A stretch of 64,000 nucleotides of DNA. It comes from Candidatus Bathyarchaeia archaeon (GTDB lineage Archaea; Thermoproteota; Bathyarchaeia; Bathyarchaeales; Bathycorpusculaceae). This document shows, one piece after another, positions 3,120 through 59,520 of this stretch (position 1 is its first letter; every line of letters starts with the position of its first letter). A program made the position numbers and the translations under genes. The stretch is taken from NCBI GenBank assembly GCA_050010755.1, contig JBEKKK010000001.1:1248001-1312000 (forward strand), written 5' to 3'. Under the pieces are notes generated by a model, which did no database searches, had not been told where the DNA came from, and saw nothing but the letters and a program-made list of their open reading frames with translations.

Positions 3120-3676
3120 TTGACTTTGGGCAAGGCGGACATGGTTCTGAAGGGAATTGAGGCAATAGCCGAAAAAGAGTCCCTGCCAATAATAGGACGA
3201 GACAGGGGACAAGTTCTCATCAAAGTCATACGCCAAACAAGACCCAGAAGGATACTTGAAATCGGAACCTTGGTTGGTTACTCAACGATTAAGATGGCAA
3301 AAGAACTTGACGCAAAGGCGTGTTTGACTACGATTGAAACCCACTCTGGTAGAGCCAAACTGGCACGCGAAAACATAGAAAAAGCAGATGTTCGCCCAAA
3401 AATAGACGTGATCGTAGGCGACGCCATCAAAGTCATTCCGAAGCTGACTGAAAATTCCACATAGTCTTCATCGACGCTGCCAAGGAAGAATATTTCGACT
3501 ATCTGAAGATGGTCGAAAAAAAGCTCCACAAGGGAAGCGTAATCGTCGCGGACAACGTTGGAGTCTTGACAGATCAAATGAAAGAATATCTAGACTACGT
3601 AAGGTCATCACGCAATTACAAGAGCGAATACATACCCTTCGGAAAAGACGGAGTCGAAGTAAGCGTAAAGCTATAG
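3120..3676 (+). pseudogene. Class I SAM-dependent O-methyltransferase, frameshifted near 3452
   Basis: ILEIGTLVGYS motif I; reading continues in another frame as FHIVFIDAAKEEYFDYLK...VIVADNVG...DGVEVSVKL* after the GAAAATTC run. Confidence 0.8.
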
Positions 3677-3737
3677 CGCACGCTGGACGCTAAAACCTCC
3701 TGCAAAACCACAAAAGGCAATCAGGGCTCTCTGACCG

Positions 3738-4198
3738 TTTTCGGAACAAGCATTGTCGCCATCATCGCGGTTTACACTGCAACATTACGCTGCAACATTA
3801 CAACGGATGTAAAGAAAAAAAGAGAAAGGAGCACGCTCATTCGGTGAAATCGAAATCCAACGTGCACTCAACCTAAACTCACGCAGAGAGGCCGACCTTA
3901 ACGCGCGCGCCATTTTCAACTTTTTTCGGAACACTGCACGATACGTGGAGATTTACGCTTACACATTACAAAGCAACATTACATCTGACGTAAAGAAAAA
4001 AAGGGGAGGGGACACCCTTCACCATAGAAATCTAGCATAACGTAAGACGCAAACCCGAAGAAAAGACGCGACCTCAACTCGCCAGCACCAAGTTTCAGCC
4101 TTTTTCGGAACACGCACGCGCAACATGGAAATCTTACATTGCAACATTACACGGCAACATTACATCTGATGTGTGTGAAAAAAAGGGAGGGGGGCACC
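3738..4198 (+). repeat. Triple tandem array (181-bp period) of a ~100-120-bp non-coding element
   Basis: Cores start at 3772, 3953, 4134: TTTTCGGAACA...TTACANNGCAACA x2, TTACATCTGAYGTAA-like dyad, AGAAAAAAAGGGRAGGGG. Confidence 0.9.
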
Positions 4199-4343
4199 CA
4201 CAGCGGTAAACCAGAGCGCGCGCTGGTGGGTAGCTCTTTTGATTCCGAGTATTGATTGTTTGTTCATAACTCTTTAAGGCGTGCTCCATTCATCATGTGT
4301 AATTCAATGCGTCGCATTACCCGTAGGCATAGATGGGGACAAG

Positions 4344-7070
4344 ATGAACGAAACTGTTGTGCAGTCTCAGGAGAAGCCAGTTCTTGACTTGAATGAGAAA
4401 ATCCGGGTGTTGCTTGTAGATGATGATCGTAGTCTTCTGAAGATTGCCAAACAGTGTCTGGAGATGGAAGCGCCCCTCCAGGTTGACACTTCTCTTTCTG
4501 TTGAAGAAGCACTCAAAAAGCTGGATGAGGAGAAGTATGATGTCATAATTTCAGACTATCAAATGCCCGCTAAAGATGGTCTGGAATTTCTCAAAGAACT
4601 GAGAGCAAAGGACAACAAAATTCCCTTCATAATGTTTACCGGCAAAGGCAGAGAGGAAGTCGCAATAAAGGCCCTCAACCTGGGAGCCAGCCAGTACCTC
4701 AACAAATTGGGGGAGACAGATGCCGTTTACGCCGAGCTGGCTCACAGCATCACAGAACTAGCAAAAACCAGAAAGGCTGAAGAAAAACAATGCGAATCAG
4801 AAGAGAAACTCCGCATCACCGAGGGCAAGCGGGCTGAAGAGGCCCTCAAGGTTTCGGAAGAAAGGTACAGGAGTCTTTTTGAGAACTCCAAAGCACTCAT
4901 GGTCACGTATGATTTGAACGGGAACGTAACCGCAGTGAACAAAGTTGCTGCCGATTATGGCTTTTGCAGTAAAGAAAACATTGGCAAAAACATGCTGGAA
5001 TTTGCTCCTCAAAAAGAAGTGCCAAGACTACGCAAGGAAGTTGAGGAAATTATTCAGGGAAAATCCGTTGAAAGCGAAATCGAAATAGACACTCCGAAAG
5101 GGAAGAGGACACTCGAGTACATTTCCAGTCCTATAAGAGAAAGAGGGGCTATCGTTGGCATTCACGGATCTTATAAAGATGTCACTGAGAGCAGGAGAGC
5201 AGCGGAGGCTCTTAGGGTTTCGGAGGAAAAGTACAAGCATCTAACGGAAGAATTGCAGCGTTTCTCAACTGCCGTTAGAGCATCTGTCGATGGTGTTGTC
5301 ATCAGCGATATGGAAGGAAAAATAATCGAAGTGAACCTTGCGGCCTTAAAGTTGTACGGCGCCAACAAAGAAAAAGACTTGACAGGAAAGAGCTCTCTTG
5401 ATCTGGTGGTCTCTGAGGAAAGAGAGAAACTCGTACTGAACATGAAGGAAACTGAGGAAAAAGGATGCGCTGGTGCCCTGGAAATCACTGCTGTCACCCT
5501 TGGTGGCAAGAGAATTCCGGTGGAAATCACGGCCACTCTGGTAAGGGATAGCGATGGCCTTTCAGTGGGCTTTCTGAACATCCTCCGAGACTTGACTGAG
5601 GCCAAGAATCAACGGAGACTGCTGGATGAGAGTCAACAAAAGTTTGCAGGCTTGTTCACCGGGAACCCAGAGGCGACAGCGTATGTCGACGTTGACATGA
5701 GGGTTTTGGACGTTAATCCCCGTTTTGAAAGCTTGTTCGGATACTCACTTGACGACATTAGAGGTAGGCACATCCAAGACGTGATCGTACCGGAGAATCT
5801 GCTTGAAGAGGGGAGGAGGTTGAGTGAGAAGGCTGCGATGGGGTACGTCTACCATGACACCTTGAGAAAGAAGAAAGATGGATCGTTGATTCCTGTCTCA
5901 GTCTCCGCCGCGCCAATTAGAGTTCACGACAAGCTGATAGGCTACGTGTGGCTCTACAAGGACATTTCTCAACAGAAACTTGTAGAAGAGTCTCTGAAAG
6001 AAAGCGAGGAAAGATTCAGGGCGTTGTTCGCTGGCGGTCCTGAAGCATCAGTCTATCTCAGTCCCGATTTCTATATACAGGATATTAACCGTCGCTTCGA
6101 ACAAGTCTTCGGATACTCTTTGGCTGAAATCAAAGGAAAACGACTCGACGACGTCATCGTTCAAGATAGCAAAAAAGAGGAAGCAGGGATGCTGAATGAA
6201 AAGGCGGTAGGTGGATATGTATATCACGAAACTGTGCGAAGACGGAAGGACGGCTCCTCTGTGCCAGTCTCAATATCGGCGGCCCCGATAGTGATCAAGG
6301 GCCAACTCTCAGGGACAGTTGGAACCTACAAGGATATTTCGGATTTGAGGAGCGCGCAGGTGAAGTTGGCTCTCATGAACGAGAAGCTGAGAGTCGTGGG
6401 TGGCCTGACGAGGCACGACATTAGGAATAAGCTTTCAGTCATTACTGGAAACACGTACTTGATGAAGAAGAAGCTGAAGGATCATCCTGAAGTCCTAGGC
6501 GGCTTCGAAGATATTGAGTTTGCAACTGCCGCTATCGTGGGGCTTCTGGAGTTTGCGAGAGATTACGAAAGGCTAGGCGTCGAAGAATTGAGTTATGTCG
6601 ACCTGGAAGATTCCATCGAAAAAGCTGTGTCGCTGTTCATGAGCAATGATCAAACGAAGATTGCGAACCATTGCCACGGTCTAACGGTGTTAGCCGACTC
6701 ATTGTTGAGCAAGCTCTTCTGCAATTTGATAGACAACTCTTTGAAGCACGGCGCCCACGTCACAATGATGGACATAAGCTGCGAAGAATCAGGGGATGCA
6801 TTGAGTTTGGTTTACGAGGATGACGGCGTGGGCATTGCTCAGGAGGAAAAGCCCAAACTGTTCAGCGAAGGATACACTACGGGCAACGGGTCAGGCTACG
6901 GACTCTACCTGATAAAAAAGATGATGGAAGCATACGGCTGGAATATACAGGAAACAGGGGTGCCCGGAAAAGGAGCACGATTTGTCATTGCAATTCCGAA
7001 ATTAAACCAACAGGGAAAAGAAAACTTCAGGCCCACCGACCACAAATCCTTGTTGACAAGCAAGTCTTAA
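4344..7070 (+). CDS. Hybrid REC-multi-PAS sensor histidine kinase
   Basis: N-terminal receiver (VLLVDDD, SDYQMP, FTGKG), about 4 PAS/PAC repeats, H-box RHDIRN, N/G boxes NLIDNSLKHG, DDGVGI, GSGYGLY. Confidence 0.95.
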   Translation: MNETVVQSQEKPVLDLNEKIRVLLVDDDRSLLKIAKQCLEMEAPLQVDTSLSVEEALKKLDEEKYDVIISDYQMPAKDGLEFLKELRAKDNKIPFIMFTGKGREEVAIKALNLGASQYLNKLGETDAVYAELAHSITELAKTRKAEEKQCESEEKLRITEGKRAEEALKVSEERYRSLFENSKALMVTYDLNGNVTAVNKVAADYGFCSKENIGKNMLEFAPQKEVPRLRKEVEEIIQGKSVESEIEIDTPKGKRTLEYISSPIRERGAIVGIHGSYKDVTESRRAAEALRVSEEKYKHLTEELQRFSTAVRASVDGVVISDMEGKIIEVNLAALKLYGANKEKDLTGKSSLDLVVSEEREKLVLNMKETEEKGCAGALEITAVTLGGKRIPVEITATLVRDSDGLSVGFLNILRDLTEAKNQRRLLDESQQKFAGLFTGNPEATAYVDVDMRVLDVNPRFESLFGYSLDDIRGRHIQDVIVPENLLEEGRRLSEKAAMGYVYHDTLRKKKDGSLIPVSVSAAPIRVHDKLIGYVWLYKDISQQKLVEESLKESEERFRALFAGGPEASVYLSPDFYIQDINRRFEQVFGYSLAEIKGKRLDDVIVQDSKKEEAGMLNEKAVGGYVYHETVRRRKDGSSVPVSISAAPIVIKGQLSGTVGTYKDISDLRSAQVKLALMNEKLRVVGGLTRHDIRNKLSVITGNTYLMKKKLKDHPEVLGGFEDIEFATAAIVGLLEFARDYERLGVEELSYVDLEDSIEKAVSLFMSNDQTKIANHCHGLTVLADSLLSKLFCNLIDNSLKHGAHVTMMDISCEESGDALSLVYEDDGVGIAQEEKPKLFSEGYTTGNGSGYGLYLIKKMMEAYGWNIQETGVPGKGARFVIAIPKLNQQGKENFRPTDHKSLLTSKS

Positions 7071-33587: not shown

Positions 33588-35621
33588 CTAGCTTTGGCTT
33601 GTTTTCACAGCTTTCTTTTTGTAGATTATGGCTGCTAGTAGTGTTAATAGCATGAAAAGCATCGTGGCTTGAATCCATGGAAACTCTGGAACCACTACTA
33701 TTGGAACCGTAAGCGGGTAATGGTCAGTATTGTGTGTGTCGATTACGTAAGGCGTGTTCCAGACGCCGTCTGTTTCGGTGGCGTTCGGATACTTTGTCAG
33801 ATAGTCGCTCCAGTAGTTGCCCAAGCCTCCACTATCCCAAATGTTAGTTGAGTTTGAAGAAGAAACTTGGCTGGTGTTGTTTATGAAGTTGTTATGGTAG
33901 ATTGTGTTGTTAGAAGAAGAATCGAGATAGATGCCATCATAGGTGTTTGCTGCTATGTTGTTCCCGTTCAGGTTGTTATTGGCAGAAGAATAGAGATACA
34001 TGCCATCAAAGTTGTTTGTTATGTTGTTTCCGCTTAATCTGTTATTAGAAGAAGAATCGAACAAGATGCCAACCCTGTTGCTTGTTAAGCTATTTCCGCT
34101 CACATTGTTGTTATTAGAAGAAGACTCGAGCACGATGCCAGTAGAGTTGCCTAATATGTTGTTTCCTGTTATGTTGTTCGCGTTCAGGCTGTTATTAGAA
34201 GAAGAATAGAGATAGATGCCATCATAGGTGTTTGCTGTTATGTTGTTTTCGCTAATGGTGTTGTTTGAAGTGTTCTCGAGGAAGGTGCCATATTGAAAGT
34301 TCTCTATGTTTGTGTTTTCGATTGTTATGTTGTTTCTGTTAGATAGGTCTATTCCGTTTCCAGTTCCATCTCCTTGAATCGTGAATCCAGCTCCGTTCAG
34401 AACGATATTGTCCCTCTGCACAACGATTGACTCAATGATGATGTTGGCTGTAAACGTGTAAGTGATATTGTCAACAGTCGTAATCGGTGCTGTTGACGGG
34501 CTTATGCTTCCGTCAGCATTGATGGTAATGGGTCCGCCCTCATATGGAACCCAAAGTTGCATGAGTGGATAATAGTCGGTATTGTTTGCGTCAATGACAT
34601 ATGAAGTGTTCCAGACGCCGAAGCCGTCAACTTTAGTGGCGTTCGGATACTTTGTCAGATAGTCGCTCCAGTAGTTGCCCAGGCCTCCACTATCCCAAAT
34701 GTTAGTTGAGTTTGAAGAAGAAACTTGGCTGGTGTTGTTTATGAAGTCATTATGGTAGATCATGTTGTCAGAGGATGAGTAGAGCTCAATGCCATTCCCG
34801 TTTTTTACAACGTTGTTGCCAGACAACGTGTCACCAGAGGCAGAGTAGAGCTTAATGCCATATCCGTTGTTTGCAACGTTGTTGCCAGACAAAGTGCAAT
34901 TATAAGAAGATTCGAGCAAAATGCCAATGTTGCTGTTTGCCGTGACGTTGTTGCCAAACAATGTGTTGTTAGAAGCAGAGCTGAGCACAATGCCATCATT
35001 ACTGCTTGCCGTAACGTTGTTGCCCGACAAAGTGTTGTTATCAGACGATTGTTGGAGCCAAATGCCATACCGGTTGTTTACGACAGTGTTGTCAGAAAAA
35101 GCGTTACCAGGGGAAGAGTCGAGCCAAATGCCATACGCGTTGTTTACGACGGTGTTGCCAGAAAAAGCATTATTAGAAGAAGATTGGAGTTGAATGCCTT
35201 GTCCGTTGTTTACGACGGTGTTGCCAGAAAAAGTGTTACCGGAAGAAGAGCCGAGCAAAATGCCCCAGGTAAAGTTCGTTAAAATCAGGTTTGTTACTGT
35301 CACGTTGCTTATGTTCGTCATGGTCGTTATTCCGCTCTCGTTTCCGCCTCCGGTCACAGTGTAGCCTGCCCCGTTTAAAACAATGTTGTCTCTTTCAATC
35401 ACAATTCCACCAGTATTGGCGGCGGTGATGTTGATGTTGCCAGTTAAAGTGTATGTGATATTGTCTGCTGTATAGATGGGAGCAGTTGACGGCGTTATGC
35501 TCCCGTCTGCATTTATGTAAATGGGTGCAACATCAGCCTTGACTATCTGAATCAACCCAGTTATTGACGATACGGAAAGCAAACACAGAATTATAATCGA
35601 AACAAAAACAACTCTGTTCAT
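33588..35621 (-). CDS. Secreted NosD/CASH parallel beta-helix protein with PEF-type C-terminal anchor
   Basis: Signal peptide, two duplicated modules (INADGSI..GI.L.SS.NN..GNYWSDY..D.YPL), VPEF + TM + KKK. Confidence 0.9.
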   Translation of the reverse strand: MNRVVFVSIIILCLLSVSSITGLIQIVKADVAPIYINADGSITPSTAPIYTADNITYTLTGNINITAANTGGIVIERDNIVLNGAGYTVTGGGNESGITTMTNISNVTVTNLILTNFTWGILLGSSSGNTFSGNTVVNNGQGIQLQSSSNNAFSGNTVVNNAYGIWLDSSPGNAFSDNTVVNNRYGIWLQQSSDNNTLSGNNVTASSNDGIVLSSASNNTLFGNNVTANSNIGILLESSYNCTLSGNNVANNGYGIKLYSASGDTLSGNNVVKNGNGIELYSSSDNMIYHNDFINNTSQVSSSNSTNIWDSGGLGNYWSDYLTKYPNATKVDGFGVWNTSYVIDANNTDYYPLMQLWVPYEGGPITINADGSISPSTAPITTVDNITYTFTANIIIESIVVQRDNIVLNGAGFTIQGDGTGNGIDLSNRNNITIENTNIENFQYGTFLENTSNNTISENNITANTYDGIYLYSSSNNSLNANNITGNNILGNSTGIVLESSSNNNNVSGNSLTSNRVGILFDSSSNNRLSGNNITNNFDGMYLYSSANNNLNGNNIAANTYDGIYLDSSSNNTIYHNNFINNTSQVSSSNSTNIWDSGGLGNYWSDYLTKYPNATETDGVWNTPYVIDTHNTDHYPLTVPIVVVPEFPWIQATMLFMLLTLLAAIIYKKKAVKTSQS
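33779..34760. repeat. Near-identical ~120-bp intragenic duplication (about 33779-33902 and 34637-34760)
   Basis: Direct comparison shows only about 3 mismatches. Confidence 0.85.
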
Positions 35622-42397: not shown

Positions 42398-42489
42398 AAT
42401 AGTCAAGAGGCCGCAGACTTCCTTTCCACAGGAGAGCCAACAACCCCTTCAAAAACAAATTCACCAAAAACAACAGCACACTTTTGACC

Positions 42490-42905
42490 ATTTTCGCAAC
42501 ACGCATTGTCAACCAACATCGCCGTTTACGCTTACACATTACGCTGCAACATTACGTCTGACGTAAAGAAAAAAAGGGGAGGGGCCGTTCACAGTTAAAA
42601 TCTTCCACCCCAGCACGACGTCAAACTCACGAACAGAAAGACGACAGACACTAACAGTCACCGCCAACACGGAGATTTACGCTGCAATATCACAATGCAA
42701 TATCATAATTGACCTCACCATAAACGGAAAAAGTTTAGCCGCAAGGCGCAGTAAAGCCTGTTTAAAACATGGTTTGTCACGAAACAAAATTACAACTAAC
42801 CTCAAACCATAGAGCCGGAGGGGGCGAAAGCAACATGGAAAACTTACAAAGCAACATTACATTGCAACATTACATCTTATGTAAAGAAATAAAAGGGAGG
42901 GGCAG
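42490..42905 (+). repeat. Two complete and one degenerate copy of the non-coding element
   Basis: Cores at 42526 (dyad TTACGTCTGACGTAA), 42677 (degenerate, no G-string) and 42844 (TTACATCTTATGTAA). Confidence 0.88.
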
Positions 42906-42916
42906 ACCGCACGAGT

Positions 42917-59395: not shown

Positions 59396-59520
59396 GTCAA
59401 CTGTGAACGGTGTCCCCCCTCCCCTTTTTTTCTTTACATCTAATGTAATGTTGCTTTGTAATGTTGCTTTGTAAGTTTCCCATGTTGCGTGTGCGCGTTC
59501 CGAAAAAGGCTAAACTTGGA
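59396..59520 (-). repeat. Inverted copy of the non-coding element
   Basis: Reverse complement CCAAGTTTAGCCTTTTTCGGAACGCGCACACGCAACATGGGAAAC-TTACAAAGCAACA x2-TTACATTAGATGTAA-AGAAAAAAAGGGGAGGGGGGACACC closely matches the 4088-4198 copy. Confidence 0.92.

Follow-up and report, generated by a model that had tools for sequence, protein, structure and literature searches.

Comparison with described systems

Among the systems described so far, the one probably nearest in organization to the archaeal repeat presented here is that of the Neisseria intergenic mosaic elements (NIMEs), which consist of dRS3 repeats and RS segments, dRS3 being the integration target of the filamentous prophage Nf1 (PMC3898611). 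The archaeal repeat is found in a 64,000-nucleotide stretch (hereafter, the window) of a “Candidatus Bathyarchaeia” genome, where three units form an array at positions 3738 to 4198. The source assembly (G000) comprises 2.19 Mb and is 93.5% complete; its contigs are labelled C1, C2, etc., and the window starts at C1:1248001. The array consists of three diverged copies, arranged head to tail, of a modular intergenic repeat that is confined to the genus and that, with a probability of roughly 0.55, is otherwise selfish DNA. A 13-mer next to a dyad in each unit is very probably the chromosomal crossover site (attB core, ACAACATTA) for ~9.3-kb elements that encode a tyrosine integrase. The array itself would then consist of three unoccupied landing sites; it is neither an origin nor a gene-specific regulatory site.

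As in the NIMEs, a short conserved repeat is interleaved with longer, less conserved segment families in multi-copy intergenic arrays of a few hundred bases, and an integrating mobile element uses the short repeat as its landing site. The likeness is one of organization only: the present repeat is archaeal, its conserved block of ~65 to 100 nt compares with a 20-bp inverted-repeat box in Neisseria and its ~84 copies with ~700, the integrating elements are of ~9.3 kb and carry a tyrosine integrase, and there is no sequence similarity.

The known targets of archaeal integrases are tRNA genes and the gene of the integrase itself. Integration of genomic islands and proviruses into tRNA and tmRNA genes by tyrosine integrases is described in the Islander report (PMC4383910). 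Like the islands of that type, the elements described below have a tyrosine integrase at one end, attL and attR direct repeats with a short common core, and a conserved short target. Unlike in the tRNA islands, integration here is directed at a multi-copy repeat other than a tRNA gene, so that each genome has dozens of potential attB sites; the core is only ~9 to 10 nt long, and the disrupted unit is not restored by the element. The accessible parts of the literature on Bathyarchaeia proviruses and integrases, archaeal MITEs (miniature inverted-repeat transposable elements), and REP-type (repetitive extragenic palindrome) attB sites contain no description of this repeat or of a multi-copy archaeal attB. 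A multi-copy repeat with dozens of landing sites would explain the presence of four or more related islands in one small genome, as well as the assembly breaks in these peat archaea (contig C2 has an integrase gene at either end). It would also supply a precise, testable attB/attP pair for an uncharacterized integrase clade with 372 metagenome homologues.

Probable integration of ~9.3-kb elements into the 13-mer

The assembly contains two complete insertions of ~9.33 kb and four further junctions at contig ends. At the left junctions, four copies of the unit (C1:196122, C3:16340, C8:11840, and, on the minus strand, C4:1831) are cut off right after the last 13-mer. The DNA beyond them is unrelated to the unit and in three of the four cases carries a palindromic box, TTAATCAGTTGATTAAAAAAG, about 50 to 70 nt in. 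At the right junctions, four 3'-partial copies start at the last 13-mer, ~100 to 150 nt upstream of integrase genes and pointing away from them. All four adjoining genes (C1:204311-205405, C2:135-1091, C2:199486-200436, and C3:24487-25608) are integrase paralogues; the one in C3 is more distant (38% identity) and shows the same arrangement. C1 and C3 each hold one left and one right junction of the same orientation, separated by ~9.33 kb. These pairs delimit integrated elements at C1:196165-205486 and C3:16396-25718, both of which have the integrase at the right end.

The left and right junctions have ACAACATTA in common. When the host sides of the C1 element are joined in silico, the product matches the intact unit at C2:8406 in 73 of 73 positions and the one at C1:1376383 in 104 of 118, in each case across the junction. 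The joined host sides of the C3 element likewise match intact copies of a longer module of the family, the F module, across the junction (70/77, 67/76, and 60/66). Because the left and right host halves rebuild an intact unit, we conclude with high confidence that the 13-mer adjoining the dyad is where the ~9.3-kb elements integrate.

The bodies of the C1 and C3 elements are almost unrelated in sequence, their integrases being 38% identical. The C1 element encodes mostly ORFans, along with a tail-completion/HK97-gp10-like gene (phrog_5); it is too small for a head-tail virus and may represent a satellite-like element. The position of the four remaining junctions at contig ends fits assembly breaks in repeated island DNA. 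The two ends of contig C2 (1-1399 and 199351-200576) are inverted copies of an integrase gene with 92% identity over 1106 nt. On the inward side, each copy adjoins a 3'-partial unit, and the assembly breaks inside island DNA. A search for contig-end overlaps that would join C8 or C4 to the C2 ends found none.

The left and right flanks of the C1 island map to different contigs in the congeners, and on the right, congener homology resumes only at C1:205625, at a tRNA-like 3' end ~100 nt past the unit. The right boundary of this island is therefore ambiguous, and the history of the site may be more complex. The tRNA-like 3' end itself (C1:205626-205720, minus strand) includes a T-arm (GGGTTCAAACCCC), an acceptor, and CCA, and is not called by ARAGORN, which reports only 22 tRNAs in the assembly and has probably missed intron-bearing ones.

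Directly to the left of the C1 island, an ORFan region (C1:192528-196166) holds five further units, all on the plus strand, each of which precedes a plus-strand gene, one of them holin-like; these units may be remnants of older insertions. The density of units is highest in two small contigs, C7 and C8, with 6 in 34 kb and 3 in 20 kb, respectively. Their GC contents are lower, 0.46 and 0.45 compared with 0.48, and both are probably mobile-element DNA.

The integrase

The 365-aa integrase protein has no integrase match in Pfam and no match to a recombinase in PDB by sequence or profile, where only its tail gives coiled-coil matches; in PHROGs it has a weak match to phrog_216 (E = 0.006). Database searches retrieve 372 homologues at E ≤ 1e-5, and the source annotations of some of the 120 matches listed read integrase or XerD. 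Six of the 24 aligned family members match PF00589 (best E value, 2.3e-7), and R150, K182, H246, R249, and Y278 are invariant in the family. An hhalign comparison of the family profile with the genome's own PF00589 protein, which scores above the curated cut-off, gives a probability of 98.6% (E = 6.6e-16) in a register that aligns GLRAGD, HxLRKY, and the tyrosine (R, HxxR, and Y). As judged from these conserved residues and profiles, the protein is a divergent tyrosine integrase, and it presumably binds the 13-mer and dyad.

The sequence-only reading had taken the array for a protein-binding platform, possibly origin-like. The first part of that proposal holds in a modified form, as the 13-mer is very probably a protein recognition site, that of a tyrosine recombinase; the site is not origin-like.

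The array and its units

A repeat search recovers the array as three 67-nt copies (family D1) at window positions 3771, 3952, and 4133, with copies 2 and 3 showing 76% and 69% identity to copy 1, respectively. Together with inspection of the sequence, it bears out the earlier description of three units with cores at 3772, 3953, and 4134 and a spacing of 181/181. Each unit also has the order described earlier, of tandem 13-mers, a dyad opened by a third TTACA, a run of seven A residues (A7), and a purine or G run. The dyad is perfect in unit 1, has one mismatch in unit 2, and is shifted in unit 3. With at most one mismatch allowed, the window contains 12 occurrences of the motif GCAACATTACA, where 0.88 would be expected; none of 100 shuffles reaches 12.

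Unit 1 (3738..3837, plus strand; nhmmer profile E = 8e-32), labelled type D in our scheme, begins with TTTTCGGAACA at 3738-3748 and has its 13-mers at 3772-3784 and 3785-3797. The predicted integrase core, GCAACATTA, lies at 3792-3800, the dyad TTACAACGGATGTAA at 3798-3812, A7 at 3815-3821, and a degenerate purine run, GAGAAAGGAG, at 3822-3831. Unit 2 (3920..4018, plus strand; E = 9e-32), of type B, has TTTTCGGAACA at 3923-3933, 13-mers at 3953-3965 and 3966-3978, the predicted core GCAACATTA at 3973-3981, the dyad TTACATCTGACGTAA at 3979-3993, A7 at 3996-4002, and the G-run GGGGAGGGG at 4003-4011. Unit 3 (4099..4198, plus strand; E = 1e-33) combines a type A 5' part with a type C 3' arm. It has TTTTCGGAACA at 4102-4112, 13-mers at 4134-4146 and 4147-4159, the predicted core GCAACATTA at 4154-4162, the dyad ACATCTGATGT at 4162-4172, A7 at 4178-4184, and the G-run GGGAGGGGGG at 4185-4194. 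The dyad is followed by AG, A7, and the G-string in units 2 and 3; in unit 1 the G-run is degenerate.

Linker 1 (3838..3919, plus strand) is less conserved and represents a recurrent segment of the ~181- to 189-nt unit. It is covered by alignments to C1:823219-822810, C3:139228-138993, C1:140296-140058, C1:1376399-1376646, and C2:37331-36884. Linker 2 (4019..4098, plus strand) is also a recurrent segment, whose 3' end is the TATA-like AAGTTTCAGCC, and is covered by alignments to C3:126277-126494 (83%), C2:17787-18042, C1:128179-128410, C1:1138094-1138309, and C2:37320-37063. Compared by eye, the two linkers are homologous to each other in diverged form and have the blocks TTCA..GAAATC, AAAC, CGACCTnAAC, and TTTCAnC-TTTTTCGGAAC in common. 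The linkers had been described as variable in sequence and constant in length; the constant length stands, but the sequence does not vary freely, since each linker recurs at other loci.

The closest relative of unit 1 is found at window 42485-42576 (83.7% identity over 92 nt), that of unit 2 at C1:472963-473075 (91.2% over 113 nt), and that of unit 3 at window 59409-59519 (83.9% over 112 nt). Overall, the window units show 84 to 91% identity to copies elsewhere and 69 to 76% to their neighbors in the array. As each unit is closer to copies elsewhere than to its neighbors, the array was not made by local duplication. The entire array, including the linkers, aligns to C1:823219-822810 (75.7%, 420 nt) and to C2:37331-36884 (73.5%, 457 nt).

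Short-read contigs from four DNA runs stop inside the array (the X2 contig ends at 3821 and the next one starts at 4165), and none bridges it. The read depth at the array is that of a multi-copy pile-up, 719 versus ~21.

Distribution in the genome

The sequence-only reading had proposed a genome-wide motif search. A profile built from six units of the window gives 84 matches in the assembly (nhmmer, E < 1e-3), of which those nearest to the cdc6 gene lie 17 to 23 kb from it. The matches fall into 51 clusters, of which 25 are singles, 19 are pairs, and 7 are triples; no array has more than 3 units. In all 26 multi-unit clusters the units are arranged head to tail. Most clusters (44 of 51) are intergenic, in that their overlap with crude open reading frame (ORF) calls never exceeds 30 nt. 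The other seven overlap ORF calls, of which at least one, an integrase, has an over-extended start. The claim of an undescribed repeat with a conserved architecture of 13-mers, dyad, A-tract, and G-run is borne out.

Subfamilies A, B, C, D, and F were labelled by eye, with all copies printed in register; in the window array they appear in the order D, B, and then the chimera with the A-type 5' part and the C-type 3' arm. The best-conserved motif of the unit is the 13-mer (G/A)CAACATTACA that adjoins the dyad, and the CATTAC boxes are invariant across subfamilies. Chimeric units break at the common 13-mer/dyad; besides unit 3 of the window, the reverse combination is found at C1:195297 and C1:473157.

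Seventeen of 20 G-run-to-G-run spacings in tandem clusters measure 176 to 201 nt, mostly 180 to 183 or 187 to 189; the first spacing of the window array is outside this list because the G-run of unit 1 is degenerate. The outliers are 91 and 93, in which the linker lacks its central part, and 319, which includes an inserted F module. The ~181- to 189-nt period is a property of the family and not of the window array alone. Its constant length probably reflects common descent of a ~185-nt unit with a faster-evolving linker rather than a helical-phase requirement.

No recurrent gene family is found beside the 51 clusters; of the 99 flanking proteins, no more than 3 belong to any one family. In 35 of the 51 clusters the upstream gene has the same direction as the repeat (p = 0.011), compared with 28 for the downstream gene (p = 0.58), and only 5 clusters are located between divergent genes. 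This orientation pattern is that of repeats settling behind genes, not of promoters. The REP/BIME (bacterial interspersed mosaic element) and MITE repeats of bacteria are likewise multi-copy and intergenic, occupy lineage-specific positions, and are depleted from divergent promoter regions. A promoter function was considered and rejected on the basis of the downstream gene orientation and of the histidine kinase gene next to the window array, which has a conserved promoter-like region of its own.

Distribution among relatives

A sequence-only covariance model of the 65-nt core gives 79 matches in the source genome. In the four other species of the genus, it finds 22, 31, 1, and 47 weaker matches, often clustered. 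Of 60 other genera of the family, each represented by one genome and searched with stricter filters, 59 have no match, the exception being a single match in genome G021. The congener copies keep the order of CATTAC boxes, TCTGA, A-rich stretch, and G-run, with a direct CATTACA repeat in place of the dyad and tighter packing. Judged from match coordinates, the spacings in their clusters are ~55 to 200 nt, not 181.

Synteny around C1:229262 extends to all four congeners, none of which has the element there. The locus at C1:1134887 is syntenic in three of three congeners, which have a different ~450-nt sequence there, and at C1:1016516 synteny is broken. Orthologues of the histidine kinase gene in three congeners keep the promoter-like region that corresponds to window 4241-4280 and have no element upstream; the left neighbor differs in the congeners, so this locus is not a clean empty site. 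The repeat is genus-restricted, and the positions of its units are species-specific: the motif is kept within the genus in a diverged form, and neither the positions nor the 181-nt phasing are.

A segment of more than 500 nt that includes one copy of the element and the adjacent gene is common, at ~99% identity, to two genomes of different genera, in L005 (G021:C16) and L002 (G003:C14). This near-identity reflects either a recent transfer or cross-binning of contigs.

Complementarity within the unit

In the local dyad, 93.9% of cells are paired and one pair covaries. A longer-range stem of 6 bp joins the first TTAC box to the 3' arm, so that both 13-mers lie inside it, and is paired in 85.6% of cells. 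Four of its six pairs change on both sides between subfamilies (CTTACA/TGTAAG, TTTACG/CGTAAA, and CACACA/TGTGTG); none of 500 shuffles reaches the observed score, and slid controls score lower. These changes come from approximately three subfamilies and represent few independent events. The recombinant copies, including unit 3 of the window, break the stem. RNAalifold, run on a gappy alignment of 65 sequences, predicts no structure. A GNRA hairpin considered for the F module failed on an alignment of five copies.

Assessment of the proposed function and alternatives

Multi-copy occurrence, intergenic location, and species-specific positions suggest that the repeat behaves like non-autonomous selfish DNA, and it may spread as a mobile or duplicative element. 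Several observations weigh against describing it as selfish DNA that doubles as a landing pad. The repeat search of the window shows no inverted repeat of ≥12 nt that bounds a unit, the only conserved inverted pair being the internal 6-bp stem. No target duplication is readable, the orthologous empty sites of the congeners being too diverged at the junctions. Y1_Tnp (PF01797) and the TnpB-type zinc ribbon (PF07282) have 0 matches each in the 93.5%-complete assembly, in which DDE families were not searched for. In having no bounding inverted repeats, and in its strict head-to-tail order, the repeat is unlike MITEs. Nor did an excised circle or a free attP form appear: three exact scans of viral contigs gave 0 matches, and a metagenome scan returned only the source contig. 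Integrase homologues of 43 to 50% identity in 11 other Bathyarchaeia records have no such repeat upstream. attP and attB share only ~9 to 10 nt, and the repeat is therefore not simply a copy of the att site of the element. Finally, the covarying stem, the fixed unit length, and the A7 and G-run, strongly conserved across subfamilies, go beyond what selfish spread alone explains. The kept complementarity hints at a folded single strand (RNA or DNA), which would maintain it more easily than the specificity of one protein.

The stem would find a ready place if each unit were a small-RNA gene, which the integrase elements would target as others target tRNA genes; we regard this as possible but unlikely. 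The TATA-like end of a linker (AAGTTTCAGCC or ATTTTTAAC) would drive a transcript that starts near CAACAUGG and has the 13-mers inside a stem-loop, followed by A7 and a G-rich tail. Besides the covariation between subfamilies, such an arrangement agrees with the presence of AAGATTTAGCC, which by eye lies ~27 nt upstream of CAACATGG and resembles the GAGATTTAGCC upstream of tRNA-Val. Copies that lack the left module begin their homology at CAACATGG, and the composition is strand-asymmetric, with CA-rich linkers. However, Rfam 15 has 0 matches at the gathering score in the 64-kb window, terminal units are not followed by a consistent oligo-T terminator, and the few subfamilies behind the covariation and the recombinant copies that break the stem argue in the same direction. 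Positions that differ between species would be unusual for a functional RNA gene, and the congeners have a direct repeat where the dyad should be. A folded site is also a feature of integron attC sites, which are used by a tyrosine recombinase, keep the complementarity of their arms rather than the arm sequence, and form head-to-tail arrays. By analogy with integron cassettes or pdif modules, the ~185-nt units could be miniature integrative cassettes without a resident integrase, which we consider rather improbable. The tyrosine integrase of the 9.3-kb elements would act in trans to excise, move, and stack the units at their 13-mer cores; the covarying stem around the two 13-mers would be the folded recombination site, and the 181- to 189-nt period would be the size of the moving circle. 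The uniform head-to-tail order, the tight period, the chimeric breaks at the common 13-mer/dyad, the attC-like hairpin, and the link of the repeat to a tyrosine recombinase and to no other recombinase are all in line with this view. Yet the subfamilies differ mainly in the central stem/13-mer block and have homologous linkers, as expected from divergence of whole units rather than cassette exchange. A circle of ~185 bp would be very small, circular junctions were not observed, and the chimeras are accounted for just as well by homologous recombination. Unlike integrons, the arrays have no integrase beside them and no attI, and their units are non-coding. Unlike in attC, the crossover maps to the 13-mer that borders the base of the local dyad, and recombination of a single strand is only a proposal here. 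A host platform has little probability; here, the tandem 13-mers would be bound by a regulator or a nucleoid-associated protein, and the period would be of importance for chromatin. Such a platform would account for the CATTAC boxes, which are invariant across subfamilies and recognizable across the genus, for an A-tract that could bend DNA, and for the regular period. It does not sit well with the species-specific positions, the lack of a recurrent neighboring gene family, or the loss of phasing in the congeners, and covariation of the arms within one genome fits base pairing better than the specificity of a single protein.

The remaining two interpretations come from the sequence-only reading, which had likened the units to Orc1/Cdc6 boxes. 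Archaeal origin recognition boxes (ORBs) and mini-ORBs combine a dyad, an A-rich spacer, and a G-string and include 13-bp repeats (PMC1904270 and PMC4010727). The units have this layout, with a dyad, a 9-nt A-rich spacer, and a G-string, and the opposite strand of the Pyrococcus furiosus ORB1 oligonucleotide reads TTCCAGTGGAAATGAAACTCTGGGGGG (PMC1904270). To that extent the likeness is real. It does not extend to the core motifs of the 13-bp ORB box, which are ‘TTCC’ and ‘GAA’ in the same source: the array units carry TTACA..TGTAA and lack both. Nor does it extend to the neighborhood, since the only Cdc6_C (PF09079) match in the assembly (C1:514945-515223, in the gene C1:514870-516111) is 733 kb from the window, in keeping with the earlier remark that no cdc6 gene lies near the array. 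The 810-nt region upstream of this gene (C1:516112-516921) contains canonical ORBs, seen nowhere else, around an AT-rich sequence: TTCCAATGGAAAC-AAA-GGGG at ~516444, an inverted CCCC-ATGA-TTTCCGCTGGAAC at ~516263, and a weaker box near 516700. This region is probably the oriC of the genome, as suggested by its boxes and position. With the repeat present at 51 loci and the single cdc6 equipped with ORBs of its own, binding of Orc1/Cdc6 to an origin-like array is very improbable, and the claim of an origin-like site is rejected. A false origin candidate is thereby removed and the probable real oriC placed. The other suggestion, a CRISPR-like array of a new type with repeats and unique spacers, was prompted by the alternation of conserved blocks with less conserved blocks of constant length. 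It has next to no probability, because both linkers recur as homologous segments at five or more other loci, the arrays have no more than 3 units, and the repeats are only 69 to 76% alike.

Further copies and neighboring features

Besides the array, the window contains a type D copy at 42489..42590 (plus strand; profile E = 4e-34) and a type A copy at 42830..42908 (plus strand; E = 6.5e-26). Between them, at 42655..42830 (plus strand), sequence comparison reveals an F module, a longer member of the same family with 13-mer-like boxes, ACTAACCTCA, and a G-run; homologous F modules are found at C1:128009, C1:1376244, C1:195979, and C3:16266. A single type A copy is located at 59414..59518 (minus strand; E = 1.6e-34).

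The array lies between an O-methyltransferase gene (3120-3677) and a gene that encodes a response-regulator/PAS/histidine kinase protein (4344-7070). Neither a cdc6 gene nor an integrase paralogue is found near it; cas and other transposase families were not searched for. The O-methyltransferase gene (PF01596) contains a frameshift near 3449-3451, at which related strains in DNA runs X5 and X9 have one extra base; runs X2 and X4 agree with the window. At 33905-35264, Tandem Repeats Finder detects tandem repeats with a period of 66 to 69 nt, in several arrays of up to 7.4 copies, which are unrelated to the array described here and are probably located in a repeat-protein gene.

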